Below are positions 2,024 through 50,120 of a DNA stretch of 64,000 bases, in pieces (the first letter of the stretch is position 1; every line of letters starts with the position of its first letter). The stretch comes from Candidatus Omnitrophota bacterium (lineage in GTDB: Bacteria; Omnitrophota; Gorgyraeia; 1-14-0-20-64-10): positions 1,291-65,290 of the forward strand of contig JACQCH010000011.1 of assembly GCA_016201735.1 (NCBI GenBank), in the 5' to 3' direction. A program made the position numbers and the translations under genes. Below the pieces are notes generated by a model, which worked only from the letters and a program-made list of their open reading frames with translations, was not told where the DNA came from and did not search any database.

Positions 2024-2630
2024 AGCGAACCGGCGGGAAAAACATCTGCTGGGCGGTTTGGGACTCCAGGTCCTGGTCGTTGGGCTTCTGGTTTTTGTCT
2101 ACACGCAGGCGGCCCGGCAATTGAATTATCAGCGGGGGCAGTTCTTGAAATTCCAGGAGCAGCTTTCGGCGGCGAAAGCTCAGGTAGCGAAAGCAGGCAG
2201 CCCGGATTTGGAGAAACTCCGGGCCCAAGTGGCCGAGCTGGAAGGCCGGCTGGCCGCTCTCAAGACCCTGCCGGAGTTGGCCAAGACCCTGGAATCGTCG
2301 GCGAAAGAGCGGTTCGGGTTCCACGACGTGACCCTCATGGTGGGAGTGGTGGAGAAGACCGTCCAGTCGGACCTCCCGGACCGGCCGGCTGTCGCGGCGA
2401 ATCTGGTGGGATTGGAGCTGAAGGGAGCCGCCAGCACCCGGGAAACGGCCGCCTTCTTGGACAGCTTGACCTCTTCCCTCTCGAAATTTCTGTTCCCCCT
2501 TCAATCCATGCAGTTGGAGGCGCAGGCCCCGAATCAGCAGGGTCCGCTCGCCGTTCGTTTAAAATGGCTCGTGGCGGTTTCTCCGGAATCGGAGTCGGCC
2601 CCCACAGCGACCGCGCCGTCCGCTCATTGA
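2013..2630 (+). CDS. hypothetical membrane protein, PilO/GspM-like
   Basis: ORF of 205 aa overlapping the previous gene by 11 nt (operonic). TM helix, then a coiled coil, then an alpha/beta C-terminal region. Confidence 0.45.
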   Translation: MFPEANRREKHLLGGLGLQVLVVGLLVFVYTQAARQLNYQRGQFLKFQEQLSAAKAQVAKAGSPDLEKLRAQVAELEGRLAALKTLPELAKTLESSAKERFGFHDVTLMVGVVEKTVQSDLPDRPAVAANLVGLELKGAASTRETAAFLDSLTSSLSKFLFPLQSMQLEAQAPNQQGPLAVRLKWLVAVSPESESAPTATAPSAH

Positions 2631-3476: not shown

Positions 3477-4200
3477 CGGATCTCTTTTAGAAACGCAGGG
3501 GCTGGCCAAGAGCTACAACGGGCGGCGGGTCGTCGACCAGGTGGCTCTGACCGTCCACCGGGGAGAGATCGTCGGTCTTTTAGGACCCAACGGGGCGGGA
3601 AAAACCACCACCTTCTACATGGTGGTGGGGTTGATCCCGCCGGAGAACGGCCGGATCCTGTTTAACGGCCAGGAGATCACCCGCCGGCCGATGCACCAAC
3701 GGGCCCGGATCGGGATCGGGTACCTGGCTCAGGAGCCGTCGATCTTCCGGCGGCTGACGGTCGAGGAGAATATCCTGGCGATCCTGGAGACCTTGAACTT
3801 GTCTCGAGCCCAACGGCTCTATCGGCTGGAGCAGCTTTTAGATGAGTTGGGACTGCGGGGGTTAGCGAAAGCCAAAGCCGATACCCTTTCCGGAGGGGAG
3901 CGGCGGCGTCTGGAGATTACCCGGGCCCTGGTGACCCAGCCGACGTTCCTCCTGCTGGATGAGCCTTTTTCGGGGATCGATCCGATCGCCGTGGCCGAAT
4001 GCCAAGAGATCATCCGGGGATTAAAGAGCCGGGGGTTGGGGATCCTGCTGACCGATCACAACGTCCGGGAGACCCTGGCTATTACCGACCGGGCGTATCT
4101 GATGGCCGAGGGCCGGGTGTTGATCACCGGGGGCGCCCAGGATCTGATCCAGGACCCGAAGGCCCGGGAGCTGTATCTGGGCCCGAAGTTCCAAATGTGA
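3466..4200 (+). CDS. lptB: LPS export ABC transporter ATP-binding protein LptB
   Basis: Walker A GPNGAGKTT, ABC signature LSGGERRRLEI, Walker B LLLDEP. Canonical lptB length (244 aa) and context. Confidence 0.9.
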   Translation: MSSNGSLLETQGLAKSYNGRRVVDQVALTVHRGEIVGLLGPNGAGKTTTFYMVVGLIPPENGRILFNGQEITRRPMHQRARIGIGYLAQEPSIFRRLTVEENILAILETLNLSRAQRLYRLEQLLDELGLRGLAKAKADTLSGGERRRLEITRALVTQPTFLLLDEPFSGIDPIAVAECQEIIRGLKSRGLGILLTDHNVRETLAITDRAYLMAEGRVLITGGAQDLIQDPKARELYLGPKFQM

Positions 4201-4202
4201 GT

Positions 4203-4354
4203 GAGGCCGAAACTTATGGAGCGAAGCGAACATAAGTTTGTTGGCCGAACTCATCCCGAGGCGACGAAGTCGCCGAGGGATCTCACGCGAACGTCATCTC
4301 GAACGAAGTGAGAGATCTCGAGATTTCTCGGCGGCTTCGCCGCCTCGAAATGAC
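4203..4354 (+). repeat. structured intergenic element, copy A of a 3-member CGAAG-loop hairpin family (lptB-hpf spacer)
   Basis: Hairpin aaacttatg-[gagcgaagcgaa]-cataagttt flanked by ggcc/ggcc. A catcccgaggcgacgaagtcgccgagggatctc core that is identical at 40296-40328. A second hairpin atctc-[gaacgaagtga]-gagat. A GC hairpin (ggcggc ttc gccgcc) inside gagatttctc…tcgaaatgac. Confidence 0.6.
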
Positions 4355-4386
4355 GGTGGAGGCGGACTCGCAATGACGGAGTTTTT

Positions 4387-4704
4387 ATGCGCGTCACCCT
4401 GACGGCCCGTCATGTAGAAGTTCCGGAGCTGTTTCGAGAGCTTTTGATGTCCAAGCTCGAGAAGCTGGAGCATTTCGGCCATGAGATCCTGGGACTGCAC
4501 GCGATCTTCGGCCGGGAGAGGTACTTTTACACGGCGGAGCTGACGTTAACGACCAAAGGTTTAACGCTGGTGGGCAAGGCCAAGGACCAGCGGGATCTGC
4601 TGACCTGCATGGAGGAGGCACTGATGAAGCTGAAAGAACAGCTTCGGCGCCATGAATCGAAACAGGTGGAAAACCGGCGCCGGAACGGGCCCCACCGTCC
4701 TTAG
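4387..4704 (+). CDS. hpf: ribosome hibernation promoting factor (HPF/RaiA, sigma-54 modulation protein family)
   Basis: 105 aa. The N-terminus MRVTLTARHVEVPELFRE is typical of HPF. GGAG RBS 7 nt upstream. Sits downstream of lptB, as in many genomes, but here without rpoN in between. Confidence 0.85.
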   Translation: MRVTLTARHVEVPELFRELLMSKLEKLEHFGHEILGLHAIFGRERYFYTAELTLTTKGLTLVGKAKDQRDLLTCMEEALMKLKEQLRRHESKQVENRRRNGPHRP

Positions 4705-13599: not shown

Positions 13600-16500
13600 A
13601 TGCGTTGGAAGAATCTTTTATTGACCTTTAAAGTGACAAATGCAAACTCCCCGATGAAGGCAAGCCCAAGGGCGTTCGTTTCCCTTCTTCTCATCCTTAC
13701 TTCACTCACCACCTGGACTGTTCCTTCCGGAGCCAGCCCTGAGCCCAGTCGAAGGGCCCTTCGCCAAACCCAGGAGAGCGAGCAGTCGGGTTCAGATCGC
13801 CAGCAACTCACCCAAGCCATCACCCGGGAATCCAATCCGCCTTCCCTCGCCGCCGGCCTGGAGGAGAAGTTCACCAGCTACAAGGAATTCCTGAATGACA
13901 AAAAAGAAGGACACCAACATCACCTAGATGAGCGAGAGAAAGGAAAGGTTTCTCCGGGGAGCATGATCTGGCATGATCTGCTGGATATCCAGATCATCCT
14001 TCCATTGCTGGGGCGTGCCGCGCCCAACTGGGCGAAGAAGCATAACGCCGATCTCATCGGGCTGCTTCAAGGTGCACTGATCCGCCTGACCGATTCCTAC
14101 CAGCAGTATTACAAACAGAGAGATCCTAATTCCCAGTCACAATGGAACGTGCGGGTGATCCAGGGAGGGAATCTCCGGTCCCTCTTCGAGAAGAAATTGG
14201 GATCAGCCACCAACATCAAATGGATTCACTCATTAGGGTATCCTGGACTGAGGGTGGAAACAGTTAGGAGTCTGCTGAATGACCAGCAGGTGGATTCGAT
14301 TCTCTTCGCCTTGCATGGAAACGATCCCCCCGAGGTTGTGGTTTTCGAAACGTCTTCTCATCTTATCGAGGGCGCCAAGAAGGGGGTCAGCGTACCCTCT
14401 TATGTGGAGTTAGGCAGGCATCTCCGGTCTCTCCAAGCTAAACCGACCGGTGGACGGGCGCTCAGTGCCTATAACGCGGCGCGGATTGAAGATGATAAAC
14501 ATAAGCCCCCTTCTTCAGCGGAACCTAGGGCCGCCTCGACTGTTGGACGGGGGGCCGGCGCACAGGGATCTTCCTCGCAGGGGCCTGCGGCTCCCCAACT
14601 GTCCGAACTGGAAAAACAATTAAACAGGGATCTTTTCTATCCCTCGGCCGGAGGAGATTTGAAAGGATCGGATGGTTTCTTCATCTTCAGACAGCGTTGG
14701 TGGAGATATCCATATCCGCAGCGGGAGCAGATCCTGAAGAGTTCTGGCGGTGAACTGTGGGGAATTCTCCAGCGCCGTTTCGGAATCGGGTCGACCTACG
14801 CCATGCAGCTTCTAGAAGGGGAAGAAGGGCAGAGACTTGGGCAGGGTTATGCTTTCGCCAGCAAGGATGAGGTTCGGATCTTTGTCCAGGACGTACTGCC
14901 AACCCTTCAATCCGCGGCCCAACAACTGGCCGAGAAAGTGAAAGGGGTAGAGGAGAACGAGCGGGAGGGGATCCGATCCAAAGTGTATCAAGAGACTGTG
15001 TCGGATATCCTTCCACGGATTGACAGGAACCTGAGAGATGACCAGGAGCTTGCGCTCGCAATCGGTTACCTGACGGAGCTCATCTTCACGGGAGAATATA
15101 AGGATTCCAGGGCGCTTACGGGGCTTGCAGAGGCCCTTTGGCAAGATTTCCAGAAACCCTGGAAACCGGCGCCGCCCGAATCCGCTGGGCCGCCCGCCAC
15201 GCCGGGCGCGACCCAGGCCGGGCTGGAGGAAGAGGTAAAGGTCCTCCATGGGCACAAAGGGCCGGTGCGGAAAGTGGCGTTCAACACAGGGAAGAGGAAC
15301 AGGGGTCTGCTGGCTTCGGCCAGCGATGGAGAGATTCGAATTTGGGATAGTAAAGGAACAGCTCGCCGGCCGGTCTTTAAGCATGAACCCGATGAACAGG
15401 TGTTGGTTGTGGCTTTCCGGCGGACCGGGAGCGCCGTGCTGGTGGTAGGCAATCGATCCGCCGTCAGCTGGGATGTTGGGAATAATATGCGGTTTCCAAC
15501 GAGGATTTTCTATCCTCCGGAGCTTCGGATTGACGCCGATTCCCTTCATCCAGACAGCATCGCGTTGTCGCCTGGCCGCACCTCGATGGTGATCGCTGGC
15601 AAAGAAGGTGCAATGGCCGTCATCCAGAATCTGGATCCGGATCGCAAGCTCAAAGGGTTAGATAAGCCGATGGGGATTCTGGGGCAACTTCAACCAGAGA
15701 AGGGGGCGGTGTTGAGTGTTGCTGTCAAGCCGGAGGATCCGGAGAAGGTGAGTCGGGGAAGATACATGGATGGCTGGGTGGCAGCCCTCGGCACCAGTAC
15801 AGGAACAGTGGAGTTATGGAAACTTCTAGAGCTTGCCGACCCCTTTCACAACGTCCAGATTCAGAGCAGGAGATTCTTGGTCCTCCAAGGTAACAGCGGC
15901 AAGATCATCAGTCTGGCCTTCGATCCCAGTTCGAAGGGAAAGATTCTGGCTGCCGGGGATGATCAGGGAAGAATTCGCATTTGGAATGCAATGAGGCGGT
16001 CGTTTCAGGAGATCCCTCTCGAGGAGAAAAAGGAGATTCTGGCTCTGACCTTCAGTCCCGATGGCAGAATCTTGGCTTCGGCTGGCGAAGCAGGGACGAT
16101 CCAATTCTGGGATGCCGTCACCGGCTGGCCCTTAGGATTCCGGCGCCCCAATGAAAATCAGCCGACAAAGATCTTGAGTCTTGCCTTCAACCTGGACGGC
16201 ACCCAAGTGGCCGCCGGCCGGGACGACGGCACGATTCTCATCGCGGGTGTTCCCGTCCCTCCTGTTCCCGCCGCCGGAATGGAGGAGAGAGAGAAATTGG
16301 AATGGCAACAGAGAATCGGGCAGGCGTTTAAGGGATGGGAAGCCCGGGGTTTGATTCGGTCGGCCGATCCCTTCGTGGGGGGCTTGCTGCAGACGCGACG
16401 GGAGGTCCAGAATGAAATCAATGAGTTAAGTAAACAACCCGAATATACATTGGCCTATAAGAGCTATAGACCATTCCGGCAGGCCCGATTGGGATTCCTG

Positions 16501-19500
16501 CAAACCCTCAGTTTTCTTCTAGAGGCCCTGGGCCAGGATCCATCGAAAAGTTCGGCTCGAATTATAAAAAGAAGTGAGCCGACCCTAGAGAAGACAGGAC
16601 TGGTTTGGTTTCGTCTTGGATTCCCCATTGATGGAAGAGAGTTCCAAGCGGTTCTTAGGTTCCATGTGGATGATACAGAATACCCCTATCTTTCAATCAA
16701 CATTCGTGGCCAGACCCAGGCTTTTAAGATCAAGACGATGCCTGATAAAACAAAACAAATTAAGATACCAACGCCCTATCTCCAATTCTATACCGATACC
16801 AGCAGAGCAAGATGGAGGAAAAACATCTACTATTTACCTGGATGCTTCAACAATCTTCCGGAAGGAGCGGAAGAGCCAGAAGTCTTGGAAGCTTTCCGCA
16901 ACTTCCAAAAGGGCCTGATTGAGGCAATCCAGAAATTGCCGTTGGCCCCTCCCGCCGCCGGAATGGAGGAGCCGCTGGATTCCGACGGGGCGTTCTGGAG
17001 ACTGGAGCAGTACGCCCAGAAGGAAGAGGTCGAGATCCGTCCCGCCAGCTTCTGGTTTGACAAGGCGGGCAGGCAGATGCATCGCCGGGTTCTTGAACTG
17101 CGGCGCTCGAAGGACCCGCATGCTCTTCCGGAACTGCTGAAAATCATGGATGATCCCAGTGTGCTGGATGACGTTCGGGTGGCGGCTGCCCGGGCGTTGA
17201 TTGGCATCCCGCTCCTTGACGGTTCCGATATCGAGACGGCGCTCGATGCGGTGGAACGGTTGAGCCGGCACAATGACCATCCTCCGCGCCCTGCGCCCGC
17301 TTTGGCGCTGTACGATCCGGGATCTCCGTTGTCGCAGAGGCGGAGCCGTTTCCGAAGGCAGTTGATCGGGGTGCGCAATCATCTTATCTCTCTCCTTCAG
17401 CAGGTTCCTCCAGGCCCAGGCCTCTCGCCGGATCAGATCTTCGAGCGGCTTTCTCCCCTTTTGCAACGGCCCCCCGTCAGGGTATTGGCGGTGGGCGTCG
17501 TGGGAGTGGCCGCCGGAAGAAACGGGATTCTCTCCGATGAAACCGGTCAGGTCTATGACCACTTTATCAGCCTGAGTCCGGTCAATCGCCTGCTGTTGCT
17601 TTCTTCCTTAGACGCGACGCAGCTCCACGAGGGCGTTTTAAACCGGCTGCCTAACTGGGCTCGGAAGGGAGCGATTCCGATTTATGTCAACGAGGAGGGG
17701 TCCTCAAAAGGACGTTTGTTTCTCCAATGGGTTGAGAAAGAGAGAATAGGCCCTTCGATGGCCCTTTTCATGGACGACGATCCTGAAAGTTTCAGGGTGT
17801 TTCCGAATTCGTGGCCCGGGACGCTGGTTTATCTCGGACGCTACGATCCAGAGCTTTCCCAACTTCGCCCCAATGTCATTCAGATCAGCCGGCCGGATGA
17901 GGGAAGACCATTTAACCGGGTCGAGATTGCGCGGATCGCCGCCCTGGTTGAGTTCGCCAAACAACGGTTCGCAGGGTCGGCAACTCTTCAAGCGGCCGCC
18001 TCGGGGAATGTGTCGGGTCAGCGGCCAGTGGAATTTCTCCTCTACCAGGCCCGTTTGACCGGACCCGCTGCCGAGGATTGGAGCCCGCTGAAGGCCGGTG
18101 CTTCGGCTCCGCTCGGCGCAGGTTTGGAAGAAGCCTTCGTCACGGGGCCGGCCAAAGGATTCACGACTAAAGTAGAACGGGTAATAGAAACAGGAATCCC
18201 CGTTGCTAAACGAAAGGTCGGGCGGCTGTTGCCGATGAAGACGGTCTGGGATTTGGCCGGGGCCACGATGACCGGAGGGGCCAACGGCCTGGAGGATCTG
18301 TCCGCGGAGGATTCTTCCTCGGCGAACCGGGTCATGGAGTGGGCCAATGATGGACTGCGTTGGTTGAATGTGCGTTCTTCCATTCCAGTCATCCAGCGGG
18401 TCTGGAAACGCCTTCAGGAGGAAGGCCGCAGGGTTCTTCCGGTCGAGATGAGGGCCAACCACGCAATGACTCTGGATTTTACCGATGAGGAGCCGGCGGT
18501 TCGTCTCGACACCACGGTGGCCTCCGAGCTGAACGGGCGGGAATTCAATGCCGGGCGGCCGCTTCTTTACGCGGTCGGCCTTTTCCATGAAGCGGCTATG
18601 GCGGCTGGGTTCACCCCTCGGGAAGCAATCCATCTGACGCTGGGGCTGTACCAGGGGATGACGGCCCAGGAGCGGCAGAATCTTCAGGCGATCCTTCGCT
18701 CTATCTACATTGATCATGGAAATACATGGGCCCTTTTCCTCCAGGATGCCTCCGACTCAAAGTCCGCAGATCTGAACCCCACTGAGTTTTCTGGAATGGA
18801 TACGCTGACGTTGGAAGAACGTTTGAATGAGGAACCTTCTTCATCCGCGCGCGGGCAGATCACGGCGATCCGGAATTATCGGGACAAATGGGTCTCCTGG
18901 CTGATGGGCCAACTTCTTATTGACCTGCCGTATGACCGGATTGCTTTCCGGCAGGCCATGGAGGAGGGCAATGTGGATGCCAGACGTCGGGCCGCCTACG
19001 AGGTGATTCGGGATTACGACCGTGATGTGGAGCAGGGTAACGCCGAGCGGATGAGCACCGTGGTTAGGGAAGAATGGCTTCCGGAGGATCTGCCGTATCC
19101 GGTCCTGGTCGGCGGCCGCGAGAGCCGGGCCTTCGGCAACCAGGCGCAGTTGTTCGCCAACAGCGCTTATGTTTTGAAGACGGCGGAGATTGTCCATGCC
19201 GCTCAGCTCCTTCTTGAAGTGGCTCGGGGCAAGGAACTGCTGGCGGAATTGGAGAAGATCGCCAATGCGGCTCCGATTTCGGCGCAGGAGGAATTGAGGA
19301 AAGCGGTTGGGCGAGTCAAGGAGTTGCTGGCCCACTTGGGACCGGGAGCGGACCGGATCCGGCAATTGGTGTTCGGACCCGGCAAGGTTGTTGCCTCAAC
19401 TCAGTACGCGGGCGCGCTCCAACAATTACGAGAAAACCTGGAAATCTTCCACAGCCAGGCGTCTAAGGTGATGGAGCAGGCGAAGGATCAGGTGGTCGCG

Positions 19501-22500
19501 GCGAGCACCGAAGGGGTTTCCAGACGTCTTCCGCAGGAGAATCTAACGGTCGGCTTCCGGGAAACTCAGCAGCGACTCACCGAGTTCGCGGACAAGGGGG
19601 GCCGGATCGCCGACGCGATGGATCAACTCTGGAAAGCGATCCTTCAAGGAGAATCGTATGCGGCGGCCTACAGCGTGCTGATGCAGAGGCCATCCCCCAC
19701 CGGGTCGGAAAAGTTCAAGGCAAACGAGCTGGAGGAGAAGCCGGAGCAGGAAGAGGTCCTCCGGAAACTGACCCGTTTAGGCGGTCAGAACCTTTACATG
19801 AGCCCCAGCTACGACTGGGTGGCCGAGGCGACGGACATTATCGAAGCGGCGCCCCTCTTTATCTACGAGCGGACGATCGAAGTGGATGAACATACCGTCA
19901 CCGTGTTTGAAGTGGACCAGGAAGGGCTCGAGCAGACGGTCCGGCAGATGGCCGACTACTGGGCGCTGAACATTGACAAGACGATGGATTCCGAGCATCT
20001 GGCGCTGGCGCGCGAGATCGTGGTTCGCACGAATCCGGCCCTCATGGCAGCGGCCGCCGAGCTGATGAAGCAGGGCCTGCCCGAGGAAGCGGCGCACCGT
20101 CGAGCATTCCAGCAGATGGAGGATTCAGGGAAGCGAGAAGTCCTTCTCAATAGAGTGGCTTTGGTGGCGGCTTGGATCGCCAGTGAGTTTGACCGGCGGA
20201 TCGAGGAAGTTGAGCGGTTTACTGAAGAGCAGTGGCGGAAACAGCATTTTATCGATCGGGTGGAAGCTCTGCGGGCACTATTGCTGGGCGATTCTCGGGA
20301 GCCGATTTACACCGGTTTCTGCAAAGAGTGCATCAGCCGATCCCAGTCGAAGGCCGAAACTCTTCGAACCGAGACAGACCGCTTGCAGGGAATTGTCTTG
20401 GCGCAGCGCCGGCCTCTGCCGGCTTTCCATATGCTGACGACGGAAGCGCCCGGGCTGGTGGAGGGATTCATCCAGGTGGTTCTCGAGGAGGAGATGGCTC
20501 TGCGGAATCTCCTTCGGGGTGAAGGCCGCCGCCTCGGGTTGGATCTTGAGCAGGAAGTCAAGGATGGGATGAAGAAGTACGCCGACCGGATTCAAATCCT
20601 GGGATGGAAGGTGATCCGGGAATTCGGCTATGAGCCGATCGTCGAGCAGTACGAGGCGCAAGGATTCTCTCGTGAACGGGCGATTCAGCAGGTGATCGGT
20701 GACCATCTGTCGCTCCAGGAGGAGCTGGCACGTCTGGCGGTCCTGGTGGAAATGGCGGAGGTGGAAGCGGGACCCGGTTACATCCTCGATCCGGAGGATC
20801 CAGATCATCCCCTCGTGACGGGACGCATCGGGAAACCAGGAAGGTCCCCGGACGACAATTATACTAAGTCGTGGACTCATCATTTTGAGCAAGAAGCATT
20901 TGAGCAGGTCTGGCAGCGCAACAAGCTCGATCCCGACTTGGCCCAGCGGATAACTCAGCTCCGGCAGGATGGAAGGACTGAGGTGGAAGCGATCGATGGG
21001 GCAATCGAGGAATCGCCTCTCTATAGTCAGGAGATTAAAGACACGGTCCGCTGGTTGGCCCGGCGGAGGGCGCTGGAGAATCTAGATGAGCGGCATCCGG
21101 AACTCCATCTGCAGGACCGGGTGCGTCGCTGGTACCGGGATCATACCGCCTTGGCGCGGACTACCGCCCGTCGTGAGACGGTTTCCGCTCATTCTCTTCA
21201 CCCAAAAATGTTGGATCCTCGGTACGCCTACTGCAGCGGGACCATCCAGGAGACGAAGGATGGGAGGCTCCGCCCGACCGGTGGGCGCAAGCGGTATCAC
21301 CTGATCTACGCCAACAGCCGCGTGAACTTGGGCAAGGGTGAGAAGGAATCGGTGGAAGTCTTGCCCCAATGGGTCGGCGTCACGGATCCGCTGGCGGCGG
21401 CTCACGGCAAGCGGTTCTACGAGCTCATCAACTTTAATCCGCAGATTCGCACCATTGTGGAAACCGAGAACCTGAAGGTATCTGAGAATCAGTGGATGGC
21501 GATGGTCCGGGCGATCCGGAACGTCCAGGCCTACTTCGTCGACCGGCTGGGACGGGGGGACATCGAAGACTTGGCTTATCAGTTTGATCAGCGTGGGGGA
21601 TTGACGGCGGCTGCACTCAAGCAGGGAGAGTCTTACCAGGCCGGGCCGACCGCCGGCTACTGCATCCCGAAAGACATTTTATTCAAGCTGTTCGTGGCCA
21701 CTCATCAGGATGCCGCCAAGCTTTCTCAGATTGGAGTCCCGAAACACCTGCACCGAGGAGTCATCCAAATGGCCGTCGAGCTGGCGGCTGCTCAAGAGAA
21801 TTTCGAGACGGTAATGGAATGGGAAAGTTGGGCGGCCCTGCAGTTGCTTTCTCAGAAAGCGCTGGAGAAAAGGTTCGGCCTGGACGGCGCGAAGTCGTTG
21901 GGGAAGCATTTCGGCAGGTACATCAGCGTTACCGGTGGCATCCCCGTCTTCCACGTGACAAAGATCCGACAACTGCTGGAGTTGACCGGCGTGCCCAGTC
22001 CGCTTCTGGCGCGGCTCCAGGATCTGCACTCCGCCCTCTGGAGCAACTGGGCGGAGCGGAAATTGACCCTGCCGGCGGAACAGGTGAACCGTTCGGTGGT
22101 CTTCACCATGACCCGGCAGATTCCAGAGGCGGCGAAGGAAGCCAAGGCGCTGAATCCGACGGCCGGTATCGTTGATCCCGACCAGCTTCGGGTCCATTTC
22201 TATGGGACCTACAAGGGGGATGAAAATTATCCTTCCCAGCCGGACGTCCGGTTCGCCTGGATCATGCGGGCGGTGATGATCTTAAGCGGCTTCGGGAAGG
22301 AAGTGGCCCTTTCTCTCGACGAAGAGGGCCAGATCCTGGCCCGGCTGGCCTGGGAAGGATTCCGCCCCGATTCGAACGATCCTGAAGATCAGAAGGTGAG
22401 GCGGTACCTGGCGAAGGAGTTGGCCGGTGTTCCGGATTTCGAGCTTCCGAGGGATCAGGCGATTGTCAATCGGCTGAAGGAGGCATTCCCCGTCCACACG

Positions 22501-25500
22501 ACGGTGGGGGACATCACCATTACCGTCGTGCCTGGAGTTTCCAGTGAGGATCTACTGGGCTTCAGCTCCGAGACAAAGGAACTGTTGGGAAATGTGGCGA
22601 CCCAGACGCAGGAACTGCTTCAGTCCAAGGGGATCTCCCCGGCGCAGATGAAGGCCGATGCCCAACAGCATTGGACATTCCCGCAGGAGTGGGTGCCGTT
22701 GAATGATCTTTCACCGGAAGAACAGAGAGGGTTGAAGGAGGCAGTCGCCGGCAAGATTCATCCGTTAGTTCTGCGGCTTCGGGGCCCCGGCGACAAATTT
22801 CTGGAGGATCTGCAAAGCCAGGATGTGGTGGTTTTCTCGGTCACTCATCCGGAAATTATGGCCTTGGACCCTGCCCACTTGAGGGACCTGATGCTGGAGG
22901 GGCACCCGAACAGCGCTTTGACGGCGCTGGACTTCGTCGCGCAGGGGCGCCACCGGGTCTGGTTCGACCGGGACATCATGAACTGGTACGCGGCGGGCCG
23001 GGGCGTTGATGAAAACGGCCAGCCGATCTTGAACTGGGAGGAACGGGATTCGAAGGGGCGCCAGGCGGTCTACCGGGCGTTTGGTTTCGGGACGGATGAT
23101 TACAGACCTCTTTTGGGAACCGGTCTGCGGGAAGAAGTGGTTCGCCAGGAGCTCCGGGCCAGAGAAATGTTCAAAGGTTTCGAACAGGTGGCCGGCGCCT
23201 CCGAGGAGGATCTGCCGCGTGCCGTCCAAGCTTTCCAGGCCCGCTTCGGAGAATGGTTCGAACGGAACCAGATGGTCACGGAGGCGGATCTAGCCATCCA
23301 GTACGAACAGCAGATGCTGTCGAATCGCCGTTGGAAGCCGCGGGACGAGGCCGTTCGGGAAGCCCTGGTGGACATCACGACCGGCCTGCCGGCCGAGAAA
23401 TTCGGCAAGGACCATTGGCTGGCGACGGGCGGGATGTTCCTCTTGAATGGGGCCCCGCAGGAGCAGATCGACCGGGTCTTGGCGATCGTTCATAAAGCGC
23501 AACAGCGGATGACGGCTCCTGCCGCCGCTGGGCTGGAAGAATCGAACCCTCGGGTGGCCCTCCTCATCAAGCCGCGGCTGACTGCGGCGGCCATTCGGTT
23601 CGCCGAACGAAAAGGAGAAATGTTCTCCGTCAAGGCCAGCGAGTCTGACGCGGTGAAAGCGGTGCAGCGGCGGAAAGGGTTGGCTCTGGAAGCGACCCGG
23701 CTGGCGGCGCTCAAGGCCCGCCAGGAAGGGTTCAACTCCGTCGAGCCGATCACTGAGGCGGCGCAGATTCCCCAGGCGCTCGTTTCCGCCAGGGAACAGA
23801 TGGATCAGATGCTCGCTGAACTTCAAACCCGCACCTCGGCTTCATCAATCCACCAGCACGTCGGCCGCGTCATGGGAACGACTGTTCAGGTTCTTCGTCG
23901 TCTGGCTGAGGAGCTGATCTCCGATGAAAAGGAACGAGAACGAGTTCAAGATCAGGTCAAGAAATTATGTCAGGGCCGGGAGATAGATCTTAAGACCTGG
24001 AATATTTTTGGAGGCAGTTATGAGGACCATGGAATTCTGGCCCGGCTCTTTGAGCTGGCCGGCCCATCTCGGCGAGACGAGGTGACGGCGGCAATGGAGC
24101 TTCTTTATCTAAGCAGCGTTTTGGAAAGAACGGCCAGTTTTCTTGTCCTTCCGGCAGAAGAAGTGGATGAGCGGCTTTTGTTGCGGGCGCTGGCTGGATT
24201 TTTTGCCGAGACAATCGACGATCATTTCTACGAATACAATCCCTGGGCGTTTGACCCGAAGAGGGGACTGACCTTTAAAGATTTCTACGATGAGCTCGGC
24301 GCATTGAAGCCCGAGCGGGCGGAGGAGCTTTATCAGGTTTCCTGGGAACACCACCGGACGCTTTATCGATATGTCCGGCACTTGATTCTCACCAAGACGG
24401 AGGCCAAAAACCTCTCTATCGGAGACCAATATGATTTGTTTGGGCAGATTCGGTTGGGGCAGAGTGTTGCGCAAGATGAACTGATAGCGCAGGCGATCGG
24501 CGCCGGCGCCCCGGGTCGCTATGAGCGGCTCTGGCGGGCTTACAACCAGACCAGGGAAATGGTTTTCATCCGCAACGACGGGTTCACCCTGCCGATGGTC
24601 TTCGAAAAAATGGATCCGGAGGATCCCGAGATTCTCGACGTCCGGCATCGGGTGAACCATGCCTTCCTCGCCCCGGTGGGGCGCACTCATTACTCCCGGG
24701 CTTTGATGGAGGCCGGCCAACTCGGCGAGAATCTTTTCATCACCCGAGATGGGGAGATGGCGACACCAGCCGGGGCAAAGGGGCCGGTGCTCCAGATCCG
24801 GGACGCCCAGTTCTGGCTGACCGAGTGGCAATATCGCCAGGCCCTGATCCGCTGCCGGGGCATGAATCCTGCCGACGCGGACCGTCAGATTGCCGAGGAT
24901 CAAAGGACAGGCCGATTGACTCCGAAGGGGATCCGGGCCGCGGCCCGGTTCACCCGGCCGGTCACCATCGGATCGGTGGTTCCCATGCACCATCATTACC
25001 TGGAGCCGGAGTTGGTGGCGGCTGGTTATCCGGCGACCGATAAATCTCCGGTTCTGTATAAAGTCACCTACGACAAGTCGATCTATCCCGAAATCTACAA
25101 TCCCGCCGAGCGGACGGGAGTTCACCTGCCGGATGAAATCGACTGGTACCGGGAGGATACCGAGGCAGCGGCGTCCGCCCCGGAGGCCAAGCAGGCCATC
25201 GCCGTGGCCTTAAGGCCGTTTGCCCGGAAACACGGGATCATCGTCGCCAAGGGTTCCGCCGAATCCGGGGCCAGGAATTTTAAGCGGTTTGACTTTGTAG
25301 ATGAGCAGGGGAAACAATTCACTCAGCAGGAATTTGAAAAGCGCCTAGCCGAGGCGGCGGAATTCATTTATCAGGTCTCCACCGGGCAGAATGTGACGAT
25401 CCAGCGGGCGATCGTTGTGACGCCGATTGCCTGGATGGATCCGAAGGCGGTGCAGGAGTTCGTTGAACGGCAGATTCGGGAATGGGCGGTACCCGTCAAT

Positions 25501-30447: not shown

Positions 30448-30515
30448 TATGAAGAAGTGGTTTGGGTTAGCGGCAATGCACAGGTTAAAGCGGAGAGATC
30501 GGCGAGACGGAGGAA

Positions 30516-30626
30516 TTAATGAGCGCGTTTTTCCCGCTTACGGGTTCGCCGATCTGCCCAGCCCAGAAAGAGGACAATTAGAATCAGGATTCCTGCGGCT
30601 GCGTAAACTCCCAGAAGCCATTCCAT
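30516..30626 (-). CDS. possible small membrane protein (about 36 aa; MEWLLGVYAAAGILILIVLFLGWADRRTRKREKRAH)
   Basis: Hand-translated minus-strand ORF in the spacer between the giant genes. GGAGAA RBS 8 nt upstream. One TM helix plus a basic tail. Too short for the ORF track. Confidence 0.2.
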   Translation of the reverse strand: MEWLLGVYAAAGILILIVLFLGWADRRTRKREKRAH

Positions 30627-30640
30627 CTATTAGGTTCTCC

Positions 30641-30859
30641 TTATTGGTCGATCCACAGAACCGCTGCAATCAGGGCTACATACATTATCAACCCCAACAA
30701 CAAGATTCGCAACCGGAATGTCTGTCCCAAGACATTGCTCAGCACCCAGGCAACCAAGATGGCGTTGCCCGCATTCAGAAGAGCTTTCGCCAGATTCTCC
30801 TGTTGTTTGCGAGTGAGTCTTACGCTCATAGGGTCATTGTGCATGGTATGAATATACAA
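30641..30859 (-). CDS. possible small membrane protein (72 aa, C-terminal TM helix)
   Basis: ORF in the lower-GC inter-giant spacer. C-terminal hydrophobic segment LLLGLIMYVALIAAVLW. Divergent from giant ORF 2. Confidence 0.3.
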   Translation of the reverse strand: MYIHTMHNDPMSVRLTRKQQENLAKALLNAGNAILVAWVLSNVLGQTFRLRILLLGLIMYVALIAAVLWIDQ

Positions 30860-30904
30860 AATTTTATCAAAAATATCAATAACAAAAAGGGAGAGAAAAT
30901 TTTC

Positions 30905-39539: not shown

Positions 39540-40247
39540 ATGCGTGGAATCCCTCTGTTTTTAGCGGCCGCCCTCGGCAGTATGGTGATGACCGGATGCG
39601 GGGTTAATTTTTATTCGGGCCGGCCCAGCGACGTGCACCGCATTAAAGAGTTGTCGGCCGAGATGGATCGGCTGAAATCGCAGAAGATGGCGGAGGTTCA
39701 GCAGCTCAAGGATGCGCAGGCCCTCCTGGAGCAGCGGTTGAGGAAAGAGATCGGCGACAAGCAGGTGACGTTGGAAATGGCGGAACGGGGGCTGGTTCTT
39801 ACCTTCGTCTCGGAGGTTCTCTTTGACTCCGGCAAGGCGAAGATCCGCCCGGAGGCGGAGGGGGCCCTGTCCAAGGTGGCCTCGGTGATCCAAGAGAAGG
39901 TGGCGGACCGGGAGATCGGCATTGAAGGGCACACGGACGACCAGCCGATCAAGGCGTCGGGCTGGAGATCCAACTGGGAACTCTCGACCGCCCGGGCGAC
40001 GAGCGTGCTGCATCTCTTGGAGGAGAAGGGAGTCAGCCCCAGGCAGATGGTGGCCGCCGGATACGGACAGTATCGGCCGGTCACTCCCAATGATTCTTCC
40101 GGGGGACGCCAGCAGAACCGGCGGGTCGAAATCGTGATCCTGCCCAAGAAGCTCACCCGGAGCGAGCAGGCCCTCCTGCGCCGGGCCCAGGCCTCGGCGG
40201 AACCGGAAGTCGCCAGCAAGGCCAAAGAATTGGAAGAATATAAGTGA
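39540..40247 (+). CDS. OmpA/Pal-family peptidoglycan-associated lipoprotein
   Basis: Lipobox (VMTGC). OmpA C-terminal domain (…GHTDDQPI…NWELSTARATSVLHLL…NRRVEIVIL). Confidence 0.85.
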   Translation: MRGIPLFLAAALGSMVMTGCGVNFYSGRPSDVHRIKELSAEMDRLKSQKMAEVQQLKDAQALLEQRLRKEIGDKQVTLEMAERGLVLTFVSEVLFDSGKAKIRPEAEGALSKVASVIQEKVADREIGIEGHTDDQPIKASGWRSNWELSTARATSVLHLLEEKGVSPRQMVAAGYGQYRPVTPNDSSGGRQQNRRVEIVILPKKLTRSEQALLRRAQASAEPEVASKAKELEEYK

Positions 40248-40254
40248 AATGAAG

Positions 40255-40376
40255 CCCAGACTTACGGAACGAAGTGACGTAAGTCTGCGGCTGAATTTCA
40301 TCCCGAGGCGACGAAGTCGCCGAGGGATCTCGTTTTCAAAGATGAGATTTCTCGGGCCTTTGGCCCTCGAAATGAC
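40255..40376 (+). repeat. structured intergenic element, copy B of the CGAAG-loop hairpin family
   Basis: Hairpin agacttacg-[gaacgaagtga]-cgtaagtct. A core identical to copy A (catcccgaggcgacgaagtcgccgagggatctc). gagatttctc-[gggcc ttt ggccc]-tcgaaatgac, with compensatory changes relative to copy A. Confidence 0.6.
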
Positions 40377-40392
40377 TGCGAGGGATCATTAA

Positions 40393-46839: not shown

Positions 46840-48627
46840 ATGGACAAATCTTATAAACACACCGGTCATTCCCGCGAAAGCGGGAATCTGGCACAATTTG
46901 ATCCTCGCTTTCGCGAGGATGACATCCCTTCCTCCAACGTCCGGCGGCGCAGCCGAATGGTCCCGGTGGGGTCCGTCCAGGTCGGCGGCGGGGCCCCTCT
47001 GGCGGTCCAATCGATGACTACCACGAATACCCAGGAGATCGCCGAAACCGTTAGGCAGACCGGCGATTTGATTCGGGCCGGCTGCGATCTGGTCCGAATC
47101 ACCGCCCAGACCACGACGGAGGCGAAGGCCTTAGGGTTGATCAAGGCCCAGTTGGCCCAGAATGGTTTGAACGCCCCGCTGGTGGCCGACATCCACTTTA
47201 ACCCAACGGCGGCCTTGGAGGCGGCGGAGCATGTGGAGAAGGTGCGGGTCAACCCCGGGAACTTTTCCGATTCCAAACGGTTCGCTCAGCGGGAATACAG
47301 CGATGGAGAATACCAGGAGGAGTTGGGCCGGATCGAGTCGGCCTTCGCTCCCTTGGTGGAAAAGTGCAAGCGGCTTAAGAGGGCGATCCGGATTGGAACC
47401 AACCACGGCTCTCTGTCTGACCGAATCATGAACCGGTACGGGGACACTCCCCAGGGGATGGTCGAGTCGGCCATGGAGTACGTCCGGATCGCGGAATCAA
47501 AAGGATTTCATGAGATCATTCTCTCCATGAAGGCCTCCAACCCGGTCATTATGCTCCAGGTAAACCGCCTGCTGGCCGACACTCTCGAGCGTCATGGAAC
47601 CGCCTATCCTCTCCATCTGGGGGTGACCGAAGCCGGCGAGGGAGAAGATGCCCGGCTCAAATCGGCGCTGGGGATTGGAGTCCTGCTGGCCGAAGGGATC
47701 GGCGACACGATCCGGGTTTCCTTGACGGAGAATCCGGTCAAGGAAGTTCCTGTCGCCCGGGCGCTGGCCCGTTGGGCCCAGGACCGGTGGAGTCAAGGCA
47801 AACTGCTCCCTCAGCCGCTGCATCCGTTTACCTGGAGGCGCCGTCCCAGCAGGCCGGCCTTGGTTGAAACACTCGTCATCGGCGGCGAAGAGCAGGTCAA
47901 GGTGGGGCTCTTTAAAGGAGACGCTCCGCATCCTAGAAGCGCCGGCGGGAGGGACACCCCCTGCGAGTTCGTTCTCGAGGACAGCGAGGCGACCCGCTCG
48001 AAATTCCATCTCATCGAGGCGGAAGAGCTGTTGGCCGAGGGGCGCAGGGCCGCCCGCCGGCTCGAGGAGAGGAACGACCGCCGTCCCATGATCCTCGTCT
48101 GGGATGCCCGCCGGTTCCTGGAGGATGACCTGCCCCTTTTGATCGAGGCGGCGGTGCAGGTGGGCGGGCTTTTGGTGGATGGAATCGCGGACGCCGTGGT
48201 GATCCGTTCCAAACTGCCCGCCCAGCGGATCCTGACTCTCATCTACAACCTTCTCCAGGCGGCCCGGGTCCGGTCGGTCAAGACCGAGTACATCGCCTGC
48301 CCGGGGTGCGGGCGGACCCTGTTCGATCTGGAATCGACGACGGGGCGGATCAAGGCGAAGACCGGCCACTTAAAAGGGGTCAAGATCGCTGTGATGGGCT
48401 GCATCGTCAACGGTCCCGGCGAAATGGCCGATGCTGATTTCGGGTACGTCGGCGGCTCCCCCGGAACCGTCAACCTGTACGTTGGCAAGGAGATGGTGGA
48501 GCGGGGGATTCCCTCCGTGCAGGCCGACGAGAAACTGATCGCCCTCATCAAGACCCACGGGAAATGGGTGGATCCCCCCATGACGTCATCTCGAGCCCCG
48601 CAGGGGCGAGAGATCTCGCTTTTCTAA
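46840..48627 (+). CDS. ispG: 4-hydroxy-3-methylbut-2-enyl-diphosphate synthase (long form with insert domain)
   Basis: N-terminal TIM-barrel motifs (VGGGAPLAVQSMTTT) and a C-terminal 4Fe-4S cysteine cluster (ACPGCGRT…GCIVNGPGE). Confidence 0.9.
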   Translation: MDKSYKHTGHSRESGNLAQFDPRFREDDIPSSNVRRRSRMVPVGSVQVGGGAPLAVQSMTTTNTQEIAETVRQTGDLIRAGCDLVRITAQTTTEAKALGLIKAQLAQNGLNAPLVADIHFNPTAALEAAEHVEKVRVNPGNFSDSKRFAQREYSDGEYQEELGRIESAFAPLVEKCKRLKRAIRIGTNHGSLSDRIMNRYGDTPQGMVESAMEYVRIAESKGFHEIILSMKASNPVIMLQVNRLLADTLERHGTAYPLHLGVTEAGEGEDARLKSALGIGVLLAEGIGDTIRVSLTENPVKEVPVARALARWAQDRWSQGKLLPQPLHPFTWRRRPSRPALVETLVIGGEEQVKVGLFKGDAPHPRSAGGRDTPCEFVLEDSEATRSKFHLIEAEELLAEGRRAARRLEERNDRRPMILVWDARRFLEDDLPLLIEAAVQVGGLLVDGIADAVVIRSKLPAQRILTLIYNLLQAARVRSVKTEYIACPGCGRTLFDLESTTGRIKAKTGHLKGVKIAVMGCIVNGPGEMADADFGYVGGSPGTVNLYVGKEMVERGIPSVQADEKLIALIKTHGKWVDPPMTSSRAPQGREISLF

Positions 48628-49953: not shown

Positions 49954-50007
49954 TAATCTATCGCTATGTAATATTCCACCGGTTGCATCGAGGTTTAGGT
50001 AAAGATC

Positions 50008-50038: not shown

Positions 50039-50046
50039 TTCTCGAT

Positions 50047-50120
50047 GAGGCCCGGACTTGCGGAGAATCAACGACGCAAGTCCGTTGGCCGAATTGATCC
50101 CGAGCGAAGCGAGGGATCTC
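50047..50120 (+). repeat. structured intergenic element, copy C of the CGAAG-loop hairpin family (5' leader of rimP)
   Basis: gaggcc-cggacttgcg-[gagaatcaacga]-cgcaagtccg-ttggccgaattgatcccgag-cgaagcg-agggatctc. Collinear with copy A, with compensatory stem substitutions. Confidence 0.55.

Follow-up and report, generated by a model that had tools for sequence, protein, structure and literature searches.

The closest described system pairs SsnA-family GIY-YIG nucleases (CDD family cd10448) with Ssn-related-motif (SRM) hairpins, which include the NTS of Neisseria (Chenal et al., Nat Commun 2025, PMC11893778). SsnA binds NTS/SRM hairpins only as single-stranded DNA (ssDNA), on one strand only, and it does not bind RNA (PMC11893778). 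Cleavage depends on the three nucleotides just before the palindrome and binding on the C that follows it, whereas the loop can be removed or extended (PMC11893778). The phenotype in Neisseria is at the level of the host, namely, control of transformation (PMC11893778). Four Ssn enzymes and their organisms have been tested biochemically, Omnitrophota not among them (PMC11893778). A second body of work defines the CGTC-tagged REP superfamily, to which Neisseria dRS3 and Rickettsia RPE-4 and RPE-6 belong (Di Nocera et al., BMC Genomics 2013, PMC3733652).

We analyzed a 64-kb stretch of Omnitrophota DNA (the window). A preliminary description had reported three structured intergenic elements of one architecture, here called copies A, B, and C, and had offered a REP-like repeat or a 5'-UTR regulatory element as explanations. 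All three are present at the positions given, on the + strand, and the patterns that they share are far beyond chance. One of these, ATCCCGAG-N(3-30)-GAGGGATC, occurs three times in the window versus 0.02 expected, and another, GAGATTTCTC-N-TCGAAATGAC, twice versus 0 expected. The 33-nt core attributed to both A and B is indeed identical. However, three copies are not the full set. A model built solely from units of other genomes (R1), together with the sequence, places nine hairpin units over five sites (Table 1). With R1, seven of these units have E <= 7e-4. Another, at E 0.04, has an inverted partner that scores 9.1 bits. Sites D (46865-46923) and E (48585-48617) and the fragments at 4367-4377 and 40379-40389 had been overlooked, and copy A has a third unit, at 4293-4319. 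Inverted units bound A (in part), B, and D, and all of the window copies are inside co-directional operons. We consider it likely that the elements are mosaic clusters of REP-type small palindromic repeats, with a unit of the CGTC-tagged REP/SRM kind, which bears out the REP-like option.

Table 1. Hairpins, units, and fragments in the window. R1, unit model; R2, composite model, used to score hairpin 1 plus the joined unit.
Feature	Position	Strand	Layout or sequence	Score	Remarks
Copy A hairpin 1 (module 1)	4201..4251	+	GTGA-GGCC-G-AAACTTATG-GA-GCGAAGC-GAA-CATAAGTTT-GTT-GGCC-GAACT	R2 85.8 bits (composite 4201-4284)	First base 1 nt past lptB stop codon
Copy A unit 1, forward	4250..4284	+	CTCAT-CCC-GA-GGCGAC-GAA-GTCGCC-GA-GGG-ATCTC	R1 23.9 bits, E 7e-4	Degenerate tag, CTC for GTC
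Copy A unit 2, forward	4293..4319	+	GTCAT-CTC-GA-AC-GAA-GT-GA-GAG-ATCTC	R1 41.4 bits, E 2e-8	Top score in window
Copy A unit 3, inverted	4320..4354	-	GTCAT-TTC-GA-GGCGGC-GAA-GCCGCC-GA-GAA-ATCTC	R1 29.5 bits, E 3e-5	"Second module" of the preliminary description
Fragment of further inverted unit	4367..4377	-	CTCGCAATGAC, reverse complement of GTCATTGCGAG		By sequence only; directly precedes hpf GGAG and ATG (4387)
Copy B hairpin 1	40249..40298	+	Lower stem AGCC/GGCT, upper stem AGACTTACG/CGTAAGTCT, apex GA-ACGAAGT-GA	R2 77.8 bits (composite 40249-40331)	Begins 1 nt past ompA-like stop codon (40245-40247)
Copy B forward unit	40297..40331	+	Core identical to A unit 1, tag TTC	R1 24.9 bits, E 4e-4	
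Copy B inverted unit	40344..40376	-	GTCAT-TTC-GA-GGGCC-AAA-GGCCC-GA-GAA-ATCTC	R1 30.9 bits, E 1e-5	
3' half of forward unit	40379..40389	+	GCGAGGGATCA		Gives GAGGGA 7 nt before ATG at 40393
Site D, rseP-ispG spacer	46865..46923		Forward 46865-46890 (GTCATTCCCGCGAAAGCGGGAATCT) plus inverted partner 46898-46923	R1 17.1 bits, E 0.04 (forward); 9.1 bits (partner)	dRS3/NTS-like: 8-bp stem, GAAA loop, without GA/GA
Site E, solo unit	48585..48617	+	GTCAT-CTC-GA-GCCCC-GCA-GGGGC-GA-GAG-ATCTC	R1 33.2 bits, E 3e-6	ispG 3' end
Copy C hairpin 1	50045..50095	+	ATGA-GGCC-C-GGACTTGCG-GA-GAATCAAC-GA-CGCAAGTCC-GTT-GGCC-GAATT	R2 93.6 bits (composite 50045-50120)	Inserted past conserved rimP-leader hairpin and T-run (relatives compared)
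Copy C forward unit, tagless	50096..50120	+	GAT-CCC-GA-GC-GAA-GC-GA-GGG-ATCTC	R1 33.0 bits, E 3e-6	GAGGGA (50111-50116) 7 nt before rimP ATG (50124)

The stretches tcatcccgag…gagggatctc and gagatttctc…tcgaaatgac had been described as two modules, but they are one hairpin unit in opposite orientations. The latter stretch ("module 3") is the unit on the opposite strand, GTCATTTCGAG-GCGGC-GAA-GCCGC-CGAGAAATCTC. The unit has the form (G)TCAT-xyz-GA-(variable mini-hairpin, often GCGNAGC)-GA-z'y'x'-ATCTC. Its outer stem is 5 bp, made of an A-T pair, a T-A pair, and three covarying pairs. The internal loop is a conserved tandem G·A/A·G in a C-GA-G context, which favors sheared tandem G·A pairs in DNA. 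The apex is a mini-hairpin of variable length (6 to 43 nt), most commonly GCG(N)AGC. The previously noted CGAAG motif is present, but it is not simply a loop: these are G-N-A triloops, closed by C-G, atop the conserved internal loop. Triloops of this kind are the classic very stable DNA mini-hairpins of Hirao and Yoshizawa. The sequences d(GCGAAGC) and d(GCGNAGC) in particular are said by Hirao, Yoshizawa, and colleagues to be very stable as DNA, and the commonest unit apex is exactly GCG-N-AGC, although that is a physicochemical motif and not a genetic element family.

Outside the palindrome, the unit has a conserved and oriented (Y)GTC tag on its 5' side and a conserved C directly 3'. In alignment A1 the invariant columns include G1, T2, C3, A4, T5, A23, T24, and C25. 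Within the window, all nine units have AT-C at the 3' end, with the C being the binding determinant in Neisseria. Six of them (A2, A3, B2, D1, D2, and E) carry the GTC tag, and the three joined to module 1 have CTC, TTC, or TTG in its place. The positions at which SsnA cleavage, binding, and loop tolerance are decided are the invariant or variable positions of our alignment, which supports a unit of the Ssn type.

The hairpin structure is under selection. With anchoring on the flanks only, complete complementarity of the outer triplets was seen in 100 of the 113 non-seed units versus 38 in shuffles, and at least 10 different triplet pairs occur among the non-seed units. The GA/GA loop is retained in 237 of 260 units, but 139 of those 237 come from the scan, whose pattern itself required GA on either side. 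DNA folding of copies A to C and sites D and E gave the hairpins predicted, and z-scores for the composites (see below) range from -4.8 to -5.4. Nearest-neighbor DNA folding of both strands revealed no clear strand asymmetry.

The units resemble SRM/NTS in several ways. They are oriented hairpins whose palindrome starts with AT, is followed at once by a C, and, where the tag is present, is immediately preceded by YGTC. The loop can vary or be dispensed with, and most copies are intergenic. Repeats also flank a gene for a single-domain GIY-YIG protein of ~90 amino acids in a repeat-gene-repeat order, here in other genomes. Apart from the base that precedes GTC, site D (GTCATTCCCGCGAAAGCGGGAATCTGG) is identical to the NTS consensus. 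However, most window units differ from SRM/NTS in having the tandem G·A/A·G internal loop, a second short stem, and a GNA triloop, and in those attached to module 1 the GTC tag, on which cleavage depends in Neisseria, is missing. The published SRM search sequence, HGTCWYN(0-2)YYVSBRHN(0-5)WNVSBRGN(0-2)RNCYNB, had 0 matches in the window (0/9 units) and 0 in seven GA/GA-type loci. It had 8, 4, and 4 matches in the Neisseria, Azospirillum, and Shinella loci, respectively, and unit D1 misses it at the first base only.

Features shared with the CGTC-tagged REPs are an unpaired CGTC/TGTC tag, complementary A-T residues at the start of the stem, frequent inverted dimers, location near the 3' ends of upstream ORFs, and occasional in-frame insertion (PMC3733652). 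Unit E at the end of ispG resembles the intragenic REPs of that study. The CGTC-1 to -4 families have perfect 8- to 9-bp stems, 4- to 5-nt loops, and a CCA-like tail, which in the window only site D fits. In contrast, most units here have a 5-bp stem, the GA/GA loop, a 2- to 6-bp stem, a 3-nt loop, and a CTC tail, and in A, B, and D the tags of each inverted pair face outward. The mosaic organization is like that of BIMEs (E. coli), NIMEs (Neisseria), and RIMEs (rhizobia), with a few hairpin types in alternating orientation, short conserved linkers that connect them, and insertion between genes. The unit sequences are different, however, and the BIME enzyme is a RAYT, which is another class of protein.

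Three syntenic Omnitrophota relatives (L134, L136, and L137) were compared with the window. None has a unit in 65 kb, and their orthologous spacers are much shorter (2-131 nt) and without the element. At site D they have 0-5 nt or an unrelated spacer. Therefore, the window elements are insertions rather than conserved leaders, and the comparison shows that the copies were inserted into short spacers of co-directional operons. At site E, the insertion replaced the ancestral ispG stop codon and added ~16 codons relative to the three relatives. In addition, the hpf locus is broken within element A in independent assemblies, as a dispersed repeat would lead one to expect.

Inside co-directional operons, the window copies would be transcribed. 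An alternative is that they are cis-acting RNA structures in 5' leaders or intercistronic regions that control how hpf, the coiled-coil gene, and rimP are translated or how stable their mRNAs are. They might sequester or present GAGGGA, or they might stabilize the upstream mRNA as some REPs do. The stems covary, as such a structure would. In B and C, GAGGGA comes from the 3' arm of the unit, 7 nt ahead of the ATG, and would be masked if the hairpin formed. The preliminary description had assigned the ribosome-binding sites of all three genes to the elements. This is so for the coiled-coil gene and rimP, but the GGAG of hpf is outside element A. It has also been argued that many REPs work as RNA (PMC3733652). 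Even so, we regard RNA regulation as improbable. The elements are missing from the orthologous spacers of the three syntenic relatives, and across many phyla the unit is beside unrelated genes in both orientations. Rfam gave 0 matches for the whole window at gathering thresholds, and permissive settings over 4150-4420 brought up no more than chance-level hits (mir-9456, and Acido-1 at 12.9 of 50 bits). The apical loops are the C-G-closed G-N-A triloops of DNA, not the GNRA or UNCG typical of RNA, and the characterized partner, SsnA, does not bind RNA (PMC11893778). The 5'-UTR option of the preliminary description fares poorly for the same reasons. The elements are inserted copies of a widespread repeat family, not gene-specific RNA regulators.

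Other readings of the elements were also rejected. A small ORF could start from an ATG/GTG in module 1 (MRPKLTERSE…), but the changes in the stem compensate one another as nucleotides and alter the peptide non-conservatively. The R'/R'' consensus of integron attC sites is absent. A kink-turn or box C/D motif was discarded because there is no 3-nt bulge and there are no C/D boxes. No intrinsic terminator or promoter was predicted within A. A sequencing-adapter artifact does not fit units that vary, covary, and occur in isolate genomes.

In A, B, and C, one unit is part of a composite, in which an ACTTRYG-stem hairpin (module 1) is connected through a GAAYT linker to a unit that lacks the GTC tag; module 1 itself carries no tag. 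Seven copies of its GGCC-closed hairpin were available, three from the window and four from other Omnitrophota contigs. Pairing held in 96.5% of cells, and 10 of 21 pairs changed on both sides, which 0 of 500 shuffles reached, so the compensatory changes described previously are confirmed. The sequence of the composite is conserved across genomes that differ in G+C (59.5% and 38%). The composite is distinct and so far found in Omnitrophota only. Four of six composites directly adjoin a stop codon, as does unit E. At one locus (L020) it is antisense to both neighboring genes, which is also difficult to reconcile with a leader RNA. In two others (L139 and L171), it is kept at the orthologous spacer downstream of the gas-vesicle gene gvpK, with compensatory changes. 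Conservation in orthologous spacers was seen for the composite at this site but not for the unit in the three syntenic relatives. The gvpK copy counts in favor of the RNA alternative. It suggests a host-level or RNA-level function, which a view of the repeats as selfish would not predict. The composite is a candidate for a further, undescribed hairpin-protein pair.

The preliminary description had staked its reading on additional copies, and these exist both in the window and in many phyla. Scanning a genome collection for ATCCCGAG…CGAGGGATCTC gave at least 120 loci. A scan of viral contigs gave only 15 matches. Among 139 scan matches, GTC was directly upstream in 130, though outside the search pattern, and the base before it was T in 81 and C in 39. 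Isolate genomes with the unit include Legionella, Vineibacter, Dysgonomonas, Planktothrix, and Neisseria. Contexts across phyla varied, with unrelated neighbor genes and both orientations. When the ORFs around the 120 loci were clustered all against all, no broadly enriched family was found, and no transposase family stood out. The only cluster adjacent to units was a small GIY-YIG cluster from 3 loci.

This GIY-YIG gene was flanked by units in 3/3 loci found from the hairpin side and in 6/6 independent loci found from the protein side (L123, L124, L127, L128, L129/130, and L140). GA/GA units are on both sides of the gene in ten independent loci (L005, L060, L079, L123, L124, L127, L128, L129/130, L140, and L150), and L152 has a strong GA/GA pair upstream only. 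The ten mostly have the order forward unit, gene, reverse unit, and the gene encodes a single-domain GIY-YIG protein of ~90 amino acids. The upstream unit ends 13-30 nt before the ATG (69 in L079), and the start of the downstream unit is 8-45 nt past the stop codon (114 nt in L128). Compared with the N. gonorrhoeae homolog of N. meningitidis SsnA, the protein shows 42% identity (E 9e-26), and its closest solved structures are the UPF0213 proteins 1ZG2 and 1YWL. Among cultured organisms with the GA/GA type, the gene is flanked in Planktothrix, where it is on a plasmid (WP_083616022.1), and has the units on its upstream side only in Spirosoma. In Azospirillum, Shinella, and N. gonorrhoeae, ssn is flanked by perfect-stem SRM, dRS3/NTS, or RIME-like hairpins. 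One repeat (in L155) we take to be the Neisseria repeat dRS3. A literature search for GIY-YIG with REP, MITE, or TIR returned nothing relevant.

The cognate protein proposed in the preliminary description therefore has a counterpart, a partner gene in other genomes, but it encodes a GIY-YIG ssDNA nuclease (Ssn) rather than a REP-associated tyrosine transposase (RAYT). We consider it highly implausible that the elements are GTAG-type REPs mobilized by a RAYT. The resemblance is only a general one: both are short, intergenic palindromes that form inverted pairs and mosaic clusters. However, the tag is (Y)GTC and not GTAG, the unit-flanked gene is not a Y1/HUH transposase, and no transposase family is prominent among the neighbors of the 120 loci.

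A different possibility is that the repeats are MITE-like, non-autonomous miniature transposons. A unit-ssn-unit of ~0.4 kb would mobilize them in trans, with the GIY-YIG protein as a transposase or homing enzyme, and the repeats would be selfish DNA without a host role. This overlaps our explanation but differs from it on function, and we think that it could be correct but is rather doubtful. It fits with the forward unit-gene-reverse unit order that recurs in most loci, and with gene-less forward-spacer-reverse pairs, which are common. The gene is found between glyQ and glyS, between sufB and sufC, and past recA, as if inserted there, and insertions are present or absent among relatives. Chenal et al. 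also remarked on a likeness to insertion sequences (PMC11893778). On the other hand, no target-site duplication was visible at any of the five window sites, and the start-codon-proximal unit is reversed in L060 and L123. To our knowledge, no single-domain GIY-YIG protein has strand-transfer or ligation activity, and we know of no demonstration by anyone that an Ssn transposes. The 94-amino-acid protein P0070 has one genomic context only, glyQ-ssn-glyS in 24/24 contigs read. That could be held against mobilization, although a single context is no evidence either way on mobility. Finally, the published Neisseria phenotype is host-level (PMC11893778).

We return to the REP/SRM-type repeat as the best explanation. 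By analogy with the biochemistry of the four Ssn enzymes, the unit would act as a hairpin in ssDNA, on one strand only. A cognate Ssn nuclease would bind it and nick a few nucleotides upstream, which might affect ssDNA that enters by transformation or is exposed during replication and recombination. The Ssn-unit interaction would probably account for the spread of the repeat. The Shine-Dalgarno-like sequences of rimP and the coiled-coil gene, and the C-terminal extension of IspG, are likely to be incidental side effects. The cognate nuclease in this organism is only putative because there is no Ssn gene in the window or identified in the Omnitrophota loci examined.

Three things appear to be new: the tandem G·A subclass that escapes the published motif, the Omnitrophota composite, and a composite copy kept at an orthologous site. 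We think it unlikely that either the unit-ssn-unit cassette is an autonomous mobile element or the composite is a separate functional element and not an Ssn substrate. If the former were true, the GA/GA-type cassette, at about 370-420 bp with a single-domain GIY-YIG ssDNA nuclease, would be the smallest self-mobilizing DNA element known. It would also answer the question raised in 2013 of what moves CGTC-tagged REPs. If the latter were true, the composite would have its own binding partner.

Apparent covarying RNA leaders are thus recast as dispersed DNA hairpin repeats whose partner enzyme, Ssn, was characterized only in 2025. This guards against annotating three operon leaders as regulatory RNA and two spurious protein extensions as coding. 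Our findings suggest that the Ssn/SRM system is wider than published. Units of the GA/GA subclass are found on both sides of Ssn homologs in cyanobacteria, Ignavibacteria, and bacteria of the candidate phyla radiation, and upstream of one such homolog in Bacteroidota. These loci are ready-made new enzyme/site pairs for ssDNA tools.

All three copies of the element in the preliminary description (A, B, and C) were found in the window, on the plus strand, and the observation is confirmed. A pattern search of the window for ATCCCGAG-N(3-30)-GAGGGATC returned three occurrences, versus 0.02 expected, and GAGATTTCTC-N-TCGAAATGAC occurred twice, versus 0 expected. A and B share an identical 33-nt core, as claimed. 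The module reported as tcatcccgag…gagggatctc is a hairpin in which TCAT-CCC and a tandem GA lead into a short G+C stem capped by a GAA loop, followed by GA and GGG-ATCTC; its two GA dinucleotides lie opposite each other in a C-GA-G context. However, the supposed separate second module is this same hairpin unit on the opposite strand, GTCATTTCGAG-GCGGC-GAA-GCCGC-CGAGAAATCTC; in copy A, ATCCC/GGGAT of the forward unit becomes ATTTC/GAAAT in the inverted one. Copy A also contains a third unit. Module 1, the GGCC-closed hairpin, has an apex of the same kind (GA, mini-hairpin, GA) on another stem, RRACTTRYG/CRYAAGTYY.

Locations of the elements and associated features
Feature	Sequence	Position	Strand	Context
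Copy A	window	4203-4354	+	lptB-hpf spacer
Third unit in copy A	window	4293-4319		
Stop-codon junction of copy A	window	4198-4209		
Large ORF	window	13600-30447	+	5615 aa
Large ORF	window	30401-38008	+	2535 aa; head to tail with the preceding ORF
Stop-codon junction of copy B	window	40245-40257		
Copy B	window	40255-40376	+	before the coiled-coil gene
Distorted gene call	window	46840-46956		
Site D, forward/inverted unit pair	window	46865-46923		rseP-ispG spacer
Site E, solo unit	window	48585-48617		3' end of ispG
Distorted gene call	window	48585-48627		
rimP leader	window	49925-50040	+	promoter, then hairpin and T-run
TTGACA-18-GATAAT	window	49925-49954	+	near-consensus promoter of rimP leader
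Copy C	window	50047-50120	+	before rimP
Composite	L139	1875-1950	-	directly 3' of gvpK
Composite	L171	2389-2477	+	directly 3' of gvpK
Module 1 alone	L171	924-999		overlaps end of gvpL/F gene
Unit-ssn-unit cassette	L140	1461-1829		
Unit-ssn-unit cassette	L153	1001-1294		
Unit-ssn-unit cassette	L123	1501-1830		
Locus with Ssn-type gene and units	L150 (NZ_LR882964.1)	17850-20119		Planktothrix agardhii plasmid p1
Half-unit array	L079	~2260-2400	-	before complete unit adjoining ssn gene
Half-unit array	L070	7100-7190	+	Francisellaceae MAG

A scan of one genome per species with the pattern ATCCCGAG-N(3-24)-CGAGGGATCTC gave at least 120 loci. The matches listed came from Acidobacteriota, Verrucomicrobiota, Gemmatimonadota, Bacteroidota, Chloroflexota, Firmicutes, candidate-phyla-radiation bacteria, Legionella, and others. 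GTC, which is outside the search pattern, immediately preceded 130 of the 139 matches listed, among which a unit was often followed by an inverted copy whose stem triplet was different. With GTCAT…GA…GA…ATCT as the only anchor, the outer triplets were fully complementary in 100 of 113 non-seed units, versus 38 in shuffles, and at least 10 different triplet pairs occurred. When the anchor was only a complementary outer stem, GA/GA was present in 237 of 260 units, a count that includes the 139 scan matches, whose pattern already fixed GA on both sides. The apex ranged from 6 to 43 nt and was most commonly GCGCAGC, GCGAAGC, or GCGTAGC. The unit occurs widely, and its structure is under selection.

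A covariance model of the unit (R1), built from 21 units that all came from genomes other than that of the window, detected seven units in the window at E values of ≤7e-4 and an eighth at 0.04, whose inverted partner scored 9.1 bits. This search added two sites absent from the preliminary description, D and E. Some gene calls are distorted by the units. The longest ispG ORF begins at 46840 and continues across site D, producing a spurious peptide (HSRESGNL…DPRFREDD); the true start is likely 46957. The rimP ORF is likewise overextended, through copy C (LIPSEARDLI).

The homologs of IspG assign the window to Candidatus Omnitrophota. In three syntenic relatives from this phylum, the genes follow one another as in the window (OmpA-like, small coiled-coil gene, …, uppS, cdsA, dxr, rseP, ispG, proS, rimP, nusA, infB), but no units were found in them within 65 kb. 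The spacer after the OmpA-like gene, which holds B, is 145 nt in the window and 18 to 44 nt in the relatives. The rseP-ispG spacer, with site D, is 136 nt, whereas in two relatives the genes overlap or are 5 nt apart and in the third (L137) the spacer is an unrelated 229 nt. Site E lies in ~50 inserted nt, lacking in the relatives, that replaced the ancestral ispG stop codon and displaced termination, so that IspG gained ~16 residues (…MTSSRAPQGREISLF). Before rimP, element C, absent from the relatives, stands between a conserved leader (promoter plus hairpin-T-run, GTGGGA…TCCCACTTTTTT) and the start codon. Therefore, C has replaced the native ribosome-binding region. The window elements are insertions in this genome, not conserved leaders. 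Of the two readings offered earlier, a 5'-UTR regulatory element is not supported, because the relatives have no units and the orthologous spacers lack the element; the REP-like reading was right. In two independent assemblies of the hpf-tig locus (Logan SRR12113410 and SRR12113409), the contig stops within element A, 84 nt before hpf, a repeat-induced break of the kind that a dispersed repeat would be expected to cause. No promoter or terminator was predicted in A. The proposal that the elements supply ribosome-binding sites held in part: GAGGGA before rimP and the coiled-coil gene derives from the 3' arms of units, which means that these two sites are now probably supplied by the elements, but the GGAG of hpf lies outside the element.

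The promoter of the rimP leader and its hairpin-T-run (GTGGGAGCGTTTCATGTCCCACTTTTTT in the window) are both conserved in two of the relatives, L136 and L137; the third, L134, shares the hairpin. The hairpin-T-run probably serves the rimP-nusA-infB operon as an attenuator or terminator. At the place of the two very large ORFs of the window, the relatives encode giant products of 2157 to 3797 aa, which match glucose-6-phosphate isomerase, transaldolase, transketolase, and WD40 propellers.

The elements are a structural variant within a known kind, the CGTC-tagged REPs and Ssn-related motifs. The CGTC-tagged superfamily, which includes dRS3 and Rickettsia RPE-4 and RPE-6, has stems that begin A-T, lies mostly near ORF 3' ends and at times in-frame within genes, and "apparently lack[s] a dedicated transposase" (Di Nocera et al. 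2013, PMC3733652). A repeat-flanked gene encodes SsnA, a 94-aa single-domain GIY-YIG protein (CDD cd10448). SsnA binds its hairpin (NTS; generally SRM) solely in single-stranded DNA and on just one of the strands, and the cut falls a few nucleotides upstream of the hairpin (Chenal et al. 2025, PMC11893778). Cleavage is set by the three bases 5' of the palindrome and binding by the C just 3', deletion or extension of the loop is tolerated, and SsnA reduces transformation by NTS-containing DNA (PMC11893778). The positions critical for SsnA are the invariant columns of our unit alignment (G1 T2 C3, A4 T5, A23 T24, C25), and the variable apex is the counterpart of the dispensable NTS/SRM loop (Chenal et al. 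2025). Site D equals the NTS consensus apart from the base before GTC. However, the published degenerate SRM search sequence matched none of nine window units and none in GA/GA-type loci; it had 8, 4, and 4 matches in the Neisseria, Azospirillum, and Shinella loci, respectively. Therefore, the tandem-G·A subclass escapes the published search motif.

Clustering of ORFs around the at least 120 loci listed revealed no general neighbour. Among these loci, it gave a three-member cluster of ~90- to 130-aa proteins directly abutting units. These are GIY-YIG domains, with units on both sides in each locus. From the protein side, we retrieved homologs and the DNA around five and then a sixth (L123, L124, L127, L128, L129/130, and L140), and units were on both sides of the gene in every one of these independent loci. 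The upstream unit ended 13 to 30 nt before the start codon, and the downstream reverse unit began 8 to 45 nt past the stop codon, except in L128 (114 nt). The start-codon-proximal unit was reversed in L060 and L123. Annotated plasmid records, when searched, added cultured organisms to this picture. In Planktothrix, strong GA/GA units flank the gene on either side, and Spirosoma has a strong GA/GA pair upstream only. Azospirillum and Shinella have perfect-stem GTCAT hairpins with weak R1 scores, the flanking hairpins in Neisseria gonorrhoeae are dRS3 repeats, and Sinorhizobium has CTCAT-type (RIME-like) palindromes that R1 did not detect. The GIY-YIG protein of GA/GA-type loci shares 42% identity with the N. 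gonorrhoeae SsnA homolog, and its nearest solved structures are UPF0213 proteins. The unit is associated with Ssn-family genes.

Unit-ssn-unit cassettes split normally adjacent or co-operonic genes: glyQ/glyS in a Portnoybacteria-like organism (L140) and sufB/sufC in Azospirillum lipoferum (L153). In L123, the cassette directly follows recA. On the P. agardhii plasmid, the gene and its units have an MmeI-type restriction-modification gene on one side and drmA, the DISARM helicase gene, on the other, which is a defence-island context. Tandem half-unit arrays also occur in two loci (e.g., GTCATCCCGAGCGGAGCGGCGGCCCCCTCC four times in L079), a pattern suggestive of slippage, or of abortive events that recurred, at the 5' half of the hairpin.

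From the published Ssn enzymology, we infer that the units would act as hairpins in ssDNA, in a strand-specific manner, which a putative cognate Ssn would bind and nick. An apical GCGNAGC and C-GA-G tandem mismatches are classic very stable DNA motifs, which supports a role as DNA; selection on RNA would favour GNRA or UNCG loops.

The composite, in which module 1 is joined by a GAAYT linker to a unit, is a distinct entity. Its covariance model (R2) finds seven copies: A, B, and C, one in an Omnitrophota MAG (L020), one in a 37.6% G+C contig (L139) whose GvpL has Omnitrophota as its best named relatives, and two in L171, of which one is only module 1. So far, the composite is found only in Omnitrophota, and it is not described in the literature consulted on CGTC-tagged REPs and Ssn. 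Across the seven copies, 96.5% of cells pair and 10 of 21 pairs are changed on both sides; no shuffle reached this pairing, and slid controls were ~35% paired. Units joined to module 1 never have the GTC tag; CTC, TTC, TTG, or TTT stands in its place. Under the Neisseria rules, such tagless units would permit binding but not cutting.

L139 and L171 are low-G+C (~38%) Omnitrophota gas-vesicle clusters whose GvpL proteins are 71% identical, and both have a composite after gvpK. Between these two copies, the stems carry compensatory changes and the L171 apex is longer, which points toward retention or homogenisation and away from decay. Five of six composite copies, including A, B, and those in L139, L020, and L171, start TGA(R)GCC 0 to 2 nt from the upstream stop codon (junctions TGAgTGAGGCC, TGAaaTGAAGCC, and TAAaTGAGGCC). 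This adjacency may reflect target preference or selection. The module 1 that stands alone in L171 overlaps the end of a gvpL/F gene.
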